Source of the DNA: Escherichia coli
GTDB taxonomy: Bacteria > Pseudomonadota > Gammaproteobacteria > Enterobacterales > Enterobacteriaceae
Direction: 5' to 3' (one strand)
NCBI RefSeq assembly: GCF_003334815.1
Contig: NZ_QOWO01000004.1
Length of the DNA stretch: 64,000 nt
Under the pieces are notes generated by a model. The model was not told where the DNA came from. It did no database searches and saw nothing but the letters and a program-made list of their open reading frames with translations. The position numbers were made by a program, and so were the translations under genes. Shown here in pieces: positions 40,737-40,950 of this stretch. Position 1 is the first letter of the stretch; each line of letters opens with the position of its first letter.

Positions 40737-40789
40737 AAATAGCCCGATGGATTTATCATCGGGCTGAGATTTATGACAAACGCAAAACT

Positions 40790-40887
40790 GCCTGATGCGC
40801 TACGCTTATCAGGCCTACGTGGATCGATCAATTTATTGAATTTACACAATTTTGTAGGCCGGATAAGGCGTTCACGCCGCATCCGGC
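40790..40887. repeat. REP/BIME pair between narP and ccmH
   Basis: GCCTGATGCGCTACGCTTATCAGGCCTAC and inverted TGTAGGCCGGATAAGGCGTTCACGCCGCATCCGGCA match REP consensus. Confidence 0.6.
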
Positions 40888-40916
40888 ATAAACTAAGCGC
40901 ACTTTGTCAACAGTCT

Positions 40917-40950
40917 AGCCCGATGGCATCACCATCGGGCCTCTTTTTAT
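40917..40950 (+). terminator. Rho-independent terminator (narP side; overlaps the ccmH stop)
   Basis: GCCCGATGG-catca-CCATCGGGC followed by CTCTTTTTATTT. Confidence 0.6.

Follow-up and report, generated by a model that had tools for sequence, protein, structure and literature searches.

A BIME-1 element between two direct copies of a terminator hairpin at the narP-ccmH locus of Escherichia coli

The convergent genes narP and ccmH of Escherichia coli are separated, in the 64-kb stretch of DNA analysed here (64,000 nucleotides, henceforth the window), by a spacer of 210 bp in which two hairpins with the same stem enclose an inverted pair of REP sequences. How did a REP pair come to lie between two copies of a hairpin? 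The original prediction saw in this arrangement the footprint of a REP or BIME insertion into the narP terminator, or of a duplication of that terminator. The spread of REP and BIME sequences has been a puzzle over several decades: the enzyme put forward as its agent makes no target duplication, and, to our knowledge, an insertion has yet to be observed as it happens.

Both same-stem hairpins were confirmed at their predicted places, where they form a direct repeat of 25 nt with 84% identity and a start-to-start distance of 176 (Table 1). Hairpin 1 pairs AGCCCGATG with CATCGGGCT (40741-40749 and 40757-40765) around the loop GATTTAT, and hairpin 2 pairs GCCCGATGG with CCATCGGGC (40918-40926 and 40932-40940) around the loop CATCA. 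The first 11 nt, TAGCCCGATGG, are identical in the two copies, and all four differences fall in the loop. The 3' arm of hairpin 1 had been given one base too long and reads CATCGGGC(T). The 9-mer GCCCGATGG occurs four times in the 64 kb against 0.66 expected (about six-fold), with three of the four copies in the narP-ccmH spacer, and none of 100 shuffled windows reached four copies. In a scan for terminators, defined as a GC-rich stem-loop followed by a U-run, hairpin 2 passed when read along the plus strand and hairpin 1 when read along the minus strand, each with a 9-bp stem (seven GC pairs in hairpin 2, six in hairpin 1). Hairpin 1 scores as a minus-strand terminator because ccmH converges on narP: read from 40765 to 40741, it has the tail ATTTTTATTG. 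The earlier statement that the first hairpin lacks a U-run therefore holds for the plus strand, on which narP is read, but fails for the minus strand. Since the T-run of hairpin 1 lies on the minus strand and that of hairpin 2 on the plus strand, the pair represents one bidirectional terminator split in two. Thus, what had been called the narP terminator is indeed duplicated, but it is bidirectional and shared with ccmH. Each hairpin copy of this long allele retains only its outer run, and A-run and T-run stand 176 bp apart. The segment 40732-40951 as a whole forms a long imperfect palindrome, with a single-strand fold of -97 to -100 kcal/mol and a z of about -9.

The sequence between the hairpins is a complete BIME-1 element (such elements are also called RIP or RIB elements) of about 151 bp (40766-40916) that directly abuts both of them. 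Its Y and Z1 REPs are inverted, form a single pair with no tandem array, and lie extragenically between the two stop codons; the predicted inverted REP pair was thus borne out, by a Y REP free of mismatches and a Z1 REP identical to copies elsewhere. The two outer motifs align in inverted orientation as terminal inverted repeats, with the same ends at other loci. The 35-nt linker can be aligned to the linkers of other BIME-1 copies, and its core ATCAATTTATTG fits WATCAANNNNTTR except for a G at the W position, a sequence match that marks a putative IHF site. The REPs and the long linker follow the composition described for BIME-1, in which a Z1 and a Y REP are inverted around a long linker with an IHF site (PMC3333891). 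An Rfam scan of 40000-41600 returned only REP-derived families below threshold (naRNA4 and ES036, the latter in the linker region with 35.6 bits against a gathering score of 37.6) and no match for the hairpins. No repeat is annotated at the site in the RefSeq record of MG1655; the element is already tabulated as REP160 in the supplementary data of a preprint (10.64898/2026.03.23.713779).

Table 1. Features of the narP-ccmH region, in window coordinates.
Feature	Position	Strand	Remarks
narP CDS	40089..40736	+	stop TAA 40734-40736; from the ORF list; 100% identical to narP-annotated E. coli records
A-run AATAAAAAT	40732..40740	-	overlaps the narP stop; minus-strand T/U-run after hairpin 1 (terminator scan)
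Hairpin 1, left copy	40741..40765	both	9-bp stem, 7-nt loop
Left outer motif GAGATTTATGACAAACGCAAAAC	40766..40788	+	23 nt; inverted repeat of the right outer motif; recurs at other loci
Z1-type REP TGCCTGATGCGCTACGCTTATCAGGCCTAC	40789..40818	+	same as Z1 at aspC-gloC, cueO-gcd, entD-fepA and 33 metagenome sites
Long linker L	40819..40853	+	35 nt; IHF-consensus-like core at 40827-40838
Y-type REP, inverted	40854..40888	-	40854-40887 with 0 mismatches to the 34-nt Y consensus; partial naRNA4 hit
Right outer motif TAAACTAAGCGCACTTTGTCAACAGTCT	40889..40916	+	28 nt; conserved at other BIME-1 loci; inverted counterpart of 40766-40788
Hairpin 2, right copy	40917..40941	both	9-bp stem, 5-nt loop; the short allele's one hairpin has the same sequence
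T-run CTCTTTTTATTT after hairpin 2	40941..40952	+	overlaps the ccmH stop codon 40947-40949
ccmH CDS	40947..41999	-	convergent with narP; from the ORF list and E. coli records
Segment absent from the short allele	40751..40926		176 bp; alignment of the window with three short alleles

If the element was inserted into a single terminator, alleles with one hairpin and no REPs might exist, and the original prediction had proposed to look for them across genomes. We searched 5,426 complete E. coli genomes with a 501-bp query centred on narP-ccmH and found the locus in every one of them, with a contiguous match (the long allele) in 1,505 (27.7%). The other genomes, about 72%, were sampled evenly down the ranking, and those sampled match in two pieces that together span exactly 176 bp less: 28 of 28 lower-coverage chromosomal matches in this sample span 325 bp instead of 501 bp. 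Three short alleles were read (from ST361, O157:H7 and strain 3385), and their 34-bp spacer, AATAAAAATAGCCCGATGGCATCACCATCGGGCCTCTTTTTATTT, consists of the A-run, a single hairpin equal to hairpin 2 and the T-run, without REPs. The short allele is a compact bidirectional intrinsic terminator for two convergent genes. Because TAGCCCGATGG is repeated in the long allele, the register of the 176-bp difference is ambiguous by 11 nt. The genome comparison thus gave the predicted result and supports a footprint of insertion or duplication; two hairpins around unrelated sequence, the outcome that had been named as refuting, were not seen in it. Short alleles occur on diverse flanks that are 97.1-98.9% identical to the window, O157 included, and those with flanks at 97.1-97.4% probably belong to lineages that are divergent at this locus. 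The long allele hardly varies, with about 1,420 genomes at 99% identity or more. The window itself is K-12-like at narP-ccmH, being 100% identical to BW2952, but it does not come from MG1655, as the yejO-like ORF described below indicates.

A third allele was observed on a low-coverage metagenome contig (L147). It retains hairpin 1, Z1 REP and linker, followed by an incomplete Y REP that joins the hairpin-2 loop through GCATC, a microhomology of 5 nt. This fused form was not among the best matches listed from the 5,426 complete genomes, all of which were two-piece long alleles, and it may be rare or an assembly error.

The long allele also bears on where transcripts end. Subtracting 2,250,411 from an MG1655 coordinate gives the window coordinate, as calculated from the positions of narP and ccmH. 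A published Term-seq data set places a plus-strand 3' end at MG1655 2291359 (Adams et al., 2021; PMC7815308, Supplementary file 1), which corresponds to window position 40948; this is where the T5 run ends, 8 nt past the stem of hairpin 2. This end stands in at least two listings of that file, labelled only 'antisense to ccmH', and the published Term-seq tables (PMC7815308) give no plus-strand 3' end near hairpin 1. The narP mRNA of K-12 therefore reads through hairpin 1 and the BIME-1, and the whole element lies within the narP 3' UTR, which answers the call to map narP 3' ends that came with the original prediction. Hairpin 2 is likewise entry 181 (MG1655 2291323-2291356, window 40912-40945) among 306 mapped bidirectional terminators of an earlier study that are reproduced in the supplement of the preprint (10.64898/2026.03.23.713779); the genes given for this entry are narP and those of ccm, 'REP160' lies 29 nt from it, and the hairpin next to aspC, discussed below, is in the same list. 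On the minus strand, the mapped 3' end of the ccm transcripts of K-12 falls a little beyond hairpin 2, at a place that lacks a U-run, and not at hairpin 1, for which the published tables searched hold no minus-strand RNA 3' end. That hairpin 1 terminates ccm transcripts is thus a prediction from its sequence. The element as a canonical BIME-1, its REP160 entry, the terminator at hairpin 2 and the narP 3' end are already known.

We then looked at the same layout elsewhere. The left outer motif is not confined to narP-ccmH and has seven matching places in K-12. The aspC-gloC spacer has the same architecture with another hairpin (AGCCCGCTGAAAAGCGGGCT, BIME-1, AGGCCCGCATTAAAAGCGGGCTTTTTTAT), the BIME-1 of cueO-gcd has a hairpin on one side only, and that of entD-fepA has none. 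The outer motifs are common to all four loci read and thereby delimit an element of about 150 bp with the inverted ends T[G/C]AGAYTG[A/C]TGACAAA. In the cueO-gcd spacer of RIVM_C029670, the BIME-1 is followed by a second Y REP with its own right outer motif, so that the right end of the element is tandemly duplicated, with a hairpin on the left side only.

A scan of metagenome contigs with a pattern of the BIME-1 core yielded 120 stretches representing 33 distinct sites. For each site, the 85 nt to the left of the Z1 REP were aligned with the 85 nt to the right of the Y REP, and 1,056 mismatched left-right flank pairs served as the null (mean score 7.9, 99th percentile 13). Nine of the 33 sites scored above 13, where 0.3 were expected, and 12 scored at least 13; with narP-ccmH and aspC-gloC included, 14 of 35 sites reached 13 or more. 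The flanking repeats are hairpins that differ from locus to locus, measure 18-27 bp, lie at a distance of 21-24 nt on the Z1 side and of 28-31 nt on the Y side, measured from the respective REP, and always sit flush against the outer motifs of the BIME-1, the junctions at the metagenome sites having been judged by eye because of indels at the right end. At about six further BIME-1 sites a hairpin stands on just one side, and about three lack one altogether. By a crude ORF-based classification, seven of the nine classifiable repeat-flanked sites lie between convergent genes. The orientation of the copies is direct: over the 14 pairs, direct alignment was better in 12 and tied with inverted alignment in two, and inverted alignment was never better. 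At site L127 the hairpin copies are identical as direct repeats at 22 of 22 positions, on a contig that is not E. coli (its fbp is only 95% identical and its downstream region unmatched). At site L119 the repeat extends over about 37 bp and takes in, in direct orientation, a non-palindromic T-run and 12 further bases. Differences between copies are concentrated in the loops and otherwise include paired changes in the stem (T-A against C-G at L128, A-T against G-C at L109), which suggests that both copies are under selection for folding.

Occupied and empty sites segregate at other loci as well. Beside narP-ccmH, with its 1,505 occupied genomes of 5,426, the element is present in 2,811 of 5,426 at aspC-gloC, 3,192 of 5,426 at artJ-rlmC and 1,940 of 5,426 at uspB-pitA, and in the remaining genomes sampled at each of the four loci the site is 170-176 bp shorter. 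Empty alleles with exactly one hairpin were found at four of four E. coli loci tested, and each one read consists of an A-run, a hairpin and a T-run. Taken across genomes and contigs, hairpin-BIME-1-hairpin appears to be the usual layout of BIME-1, with narP-ccmH no one-off. Two further variants were observed at these loci. In E. coli ESBLEC_HM24 the stop region of aspC is duplicated in tandem over 26 bp (GTGGCAGTGCTGTAAGCGTT...GTGGCAGTGCTGTAAGCGTT) beside a single terminator hairpin. At artJ-rlmC, many genomes, including ECOR29 and HUSEC2011, carry a 477-bp variant about 86% identical to the K-12-like occupied allele, which suggests a second, divergent occupied allele.

How old is the insertion at narP-ccmH? 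NarP-linked loci were taken from one genome per species. An orthologous hairpin-BIME-hairpin unit, diverged and at the same position, is present in E. albertii and in the records SCPM-O-B-8794 (titled 'E. coli') and CP089930.1 (titled 'E. coli E69'), both of which carry a diverged long form. Divergence from the window is 0.11-0.13 in the intergenic unit versus 0.13-0.19 at narP third codon positions. The unit has thus diverged about as much as narP synonymous sites, and the insertion would be old, as vertical descent predicts. K-12 and CP089930.1 moreover share the loop of hairpin 1 and the linker variant GATCGA, which is found in none of 33 paralogous BIME-1 copies. No allele like that of CP089930.1 occurs in the 5,426 E. 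coli genomes (best match 93%), which argues that CP089930.1 represents a separate Escherichia lineage at narP-ccmH. The NarP protein of this record is 100% identical to that of the window, with 13% difference at narP third positions and 11% in the intergenic unit.

Beyond these lineages, Salmonella enterica subsp. diarizonae, an older outgroup, lacks a BIME and carries a single homologous hairpin (GCCCGATGG...CCACCGGGC), and Citrobacter species have other REPs at the site. In several Citrobacter, a REP stem, GCCCGATGG/TTATCGGGC, lies downstream of narP and is close to the Escherichia hairpin, and the narP-ccmH spacer carries different REP arrangements in different genera (L008-L030, Citrobacter, Salmonella). 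Judging from these arrangements, the site appears to be a recurrent landing place for REPs, and its terminator hairpin may itself be REP-related. Citrobacter sedlakii has a tandem duplication of about 38 bp over the ccmH stop region, with GGTTACTCCTTCGGCGGCGAAAGCTGCTGTAA present twice.

From the orthologous long forms we infer that the BIME-1 insertion at narP-ccmH predates the split of E. coli and E. albertii, which makes the single-hairpin allele of E. coli more likely a later deletion than an unfilled site. Single-hairpin alleles do exist as had been predicted, but the ancestral polarity implied for them is the less likely one, given the long form in E. albertii. The simplest history would then run from a common ancestor with one hairpin at narP-ccmH, through an early Escherichia that gained the BIME-1 and in which the hairpin was duplicated, to a later loss of 176 bp in most E. 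coli by deletion between the hairpin copies. In E. whittamii there is one hairpin, with a loop (ATTAA) like that of hairpin 1 and a 3' side like that of hairpin 2, as would fit a deletion that occurred independently and with another crossover, or alternatively a retained unoccupied allele. The 5' arms of the two hairpin copies are identical at 11 of 11 positions in E. coli and have three differing positions in other Escherichia lineages, and the identity in E. coli calls for one more event, which may have been gene conversion or a recombination involving a short allele.

The opposite order, in which the short allele is ancestral within E. coli and the long allele of K-12-like strains came later by insertion or introgression, seems unlikely to us. 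It would account well for a short allele that is in the 72% majority on diverse haplotypes, including O157 and the more divergent flanks, beside a long allele that is almost invariant, and for a long allele that equals the short one plus exactly 176 bp with identical 11-nt repeat arms. It does not sit well, however, with orthologous long alleles at the same position in three other Escherichia lineages, with locus-specific variants shared across lineages, or with a divergence that matches narP synonymous sites. An introgression would call for a donor-like allele, for which the nearest of the 5,426 E. coli genomes is again the 93% match to the CP089930.1 allele, with a true counterpart in none, and an insertion that had occurred independently a second time would not have the hairpin-1 loop and the linker variants in common with CP089930.1.

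Putting these results together, we think it probable that a BIME-1 was inserted at the terminator, duplicating its hairpin, before E. coli and E. albertii separated, and that the short allele arose by later deletion. Under this explanation, the hairpin duplication would be a target-site duplication caused by insertion of the BIME-1 at the terminator, with its length (18-27 bp) set by the hairpin and not by a fixed stagger. The simplest route would be to cut opposite strands, once at each foot of an extruded hairpin or cruciform, and then to fill in the gaps. Both narP-ccmH hairpins would since have been kept by selection while their loops drifted, and the short allele (about 72% of E. coli) would reflect deletion between the copies, aided by the palindromic element between them. 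Clean empty alleles are to be expected because direct repeats of 18-25 bp around a 150-bp palindrome are a classic substrate for slippage deletion. This insertion mechanism is one that we infer from comparing alleles and loci. It has to contend with the description of REP-linked Y1 transposases as making no target duplications (PMC3333891, PMC2817692), so that either these enzymes handle hairpin targets in another way or some other activity is responsible.

Three other origins of the second hairpin have to be weighed against insertion with target duplication. The strongest of them, though still rather unlikely, is template switching during replication, in which the new strand stalls once the hairpin has been copied, uses a BIME-1 at another place as its template and then anneals again at a point upstream of the hairpin. 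Slippage and template switching are well established to be frequent at hairpins and long palindromes, the length of the repeat follows that of the hairpin (18-27 bp, and in one case about 37 bp including the T-run), and no REP transposase is known to make such duplications. Yet the ends of the element are constant at every locus (T/GAGAYTGATGAC ... CAATCTGA), which argues for recognition of the ends rather than for switches guided by microhomology, and the hairpins and element ends have no evident microhomology in common. The long imperfect palindrome at 40732-40951, with an inverted alignment that runs through the flanks, could also be read as an outward extension of the BIME-1 palindrome by quasi-palindrome correction, the second hairpin then being an inverted copy that only seems direct. 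This is very improbable, since loops and asymmetric stem positions fit direct copies better at 12 of 14 sites and inverted copies at none, and since L119 duplicates a non-palindromic T-run and 12 bases directly and L127 matches directly at 22 of 22 positions; inverted duplication was accordingly rejected on loop orientation. Many terminators of E. coli have GC-rich stems such as GCCCG/CGGGC, and the hairpins might therefore be unrelated terminators, or resemble each other by chance, on either side of a BIME. The chance of this is negligible: the 9-mer is enriched six-fold in the window, the short allele differs by exactly one repeat period of 176 bp, and the pattern recurs at many loci, far above the null of mismatched flanks. 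Chance resemblance was refuted on these three results.

Insertion with duplication of the hairpin can be extended tentatively to BIME-1 as a class, a generalization we hold to be possible but would not yet bet on: BIME-1 elements would be MITE-like insertions that target the hairpins of intrinsic terminators and duplicate the whole stem-loop (18-27 bp), splitting the terminator, in many cases a bidirectional one between convergent genes, into two half-terminators and leaving repeats that allow clean loss. If true, this would be a structure-defined duplication outside the predictions of the RAYT 'peel-and-paste' model, and it would point to cuts at both feet of the hairpin. A consistent scar, namely a terminator hairpin copied to both sides at many loci with empty alleles, constrains the mechanism by which BIME-1 moves, offers an assayable target in the form of a plasmid-borne terminator hairpin, and would explain both the location of BIME-1 at gene 3' ends and its clean gain and loss. 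Occupied and empty alleles differ in the narP 3' UTR, which measures about 210 versus about 30 nt, and in how the convergent genes share their terminator; with occupancies of 28-59% at the four loci, the segregating alleles constitute a natural experiment on 3'-end regulation. We regard a general rule of hairpin duplication as moderately interesting and as testable.

How does this layout compare with known systems? The element shares with published BIME-1 its composition, single copy, extragenic position at gene 3' ends and presence or absence among E. coli isolates (PMC3333891, PMC1187871), at a size of about 150 bp here versus about 140 bp in the literature. Presence and absence of whole BIME-1 elements among isolates is already known (PMC1187871, which cites Bachellier 1997). 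The accessible descriptions of BIME-1 stop at the REPs and the linker and do not mention locus-specific direct repeats of a hairpin. A BIME-1 bounded by duplicated terminator hairpins was not found in the accessible literature; Bachellier et al. 1997 (Genetics 145:551) and Boccard and Prentki 1993 (EMBO J 12:5019) may have it.

With MITEs, BIME-1 shares a short non-coding sequence, terminal inverted repeats, flanking direct repeats of the target and the capacity to fold into one long hairpin, but the target duplications of MITEs are short and of fixed length, whereas the repeats here vary between 18 and 27 bp and each is a whole hairpin. We know of no transposase that would match BIME-1 as a MITE. 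REP sequences have been said in one review to lack MITE signatures (PMC3184786). REPINs mobilized by RAYT, or TnpA-REP, a Y1 HUH enzyme of the IS200/IS605 type, have in common with BIME-1 a REP doublet as the mobile unit, and the hairpin-specific single-strand chemistry of RAYT would suit a hairpin target; however, transposition of the IS200/IS605 type is described as leaving no target duplication, and duplication of a hairpin is not predicted by the published models. The RAYT gene of K-12, which we take to be yafM, lies outside the window.

In CRISPR arrays, the integration of a spacer by Cas1-Cas2 (with IHF in E. coli) duplicates the palindromic repeat through two staggered attacks at its borders and fill-in. 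The outcome would be formally alike, with one repeat copy on each side of the insert, but the insert is a spacer of 32-33 bp in an array, as against a 150-bp element at scattered terminators, and any link to Cas proteins would be conjecture. Precise excision of Tn10 and Tn5 proceeds by slippage between flanking direct repeats that are brought together by inverted repeats. The shared features are direct repeats around a palindromic insert and a product that retains exactly one repeat, like the short alleles; the duplications of Tn10 and Tn5 are 9 bp long, as against hairpins of 18-25 bp here. Among overlapping bidirectional terminators the short allele is a textbook case, whereas the long allele has its runs on separate hairpin copies.

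Two minor features of the window were noted outside the spacer. A solitary, degenerate Y-type REP at 33675-33708 on the minus strand (GCCAGATGCGGCGTGAACGCCTTATCTGGCCTGC, three mismatches to the consensus) is the only other REP-like match within the 64 kb. Upstream of narP, at 37178-39769 on the minus strand, the window has an intact yejO-like autotransporter ORF of 863 aa, unlike MG1655, in which yejO is a pseudogene interrupted by IS5.
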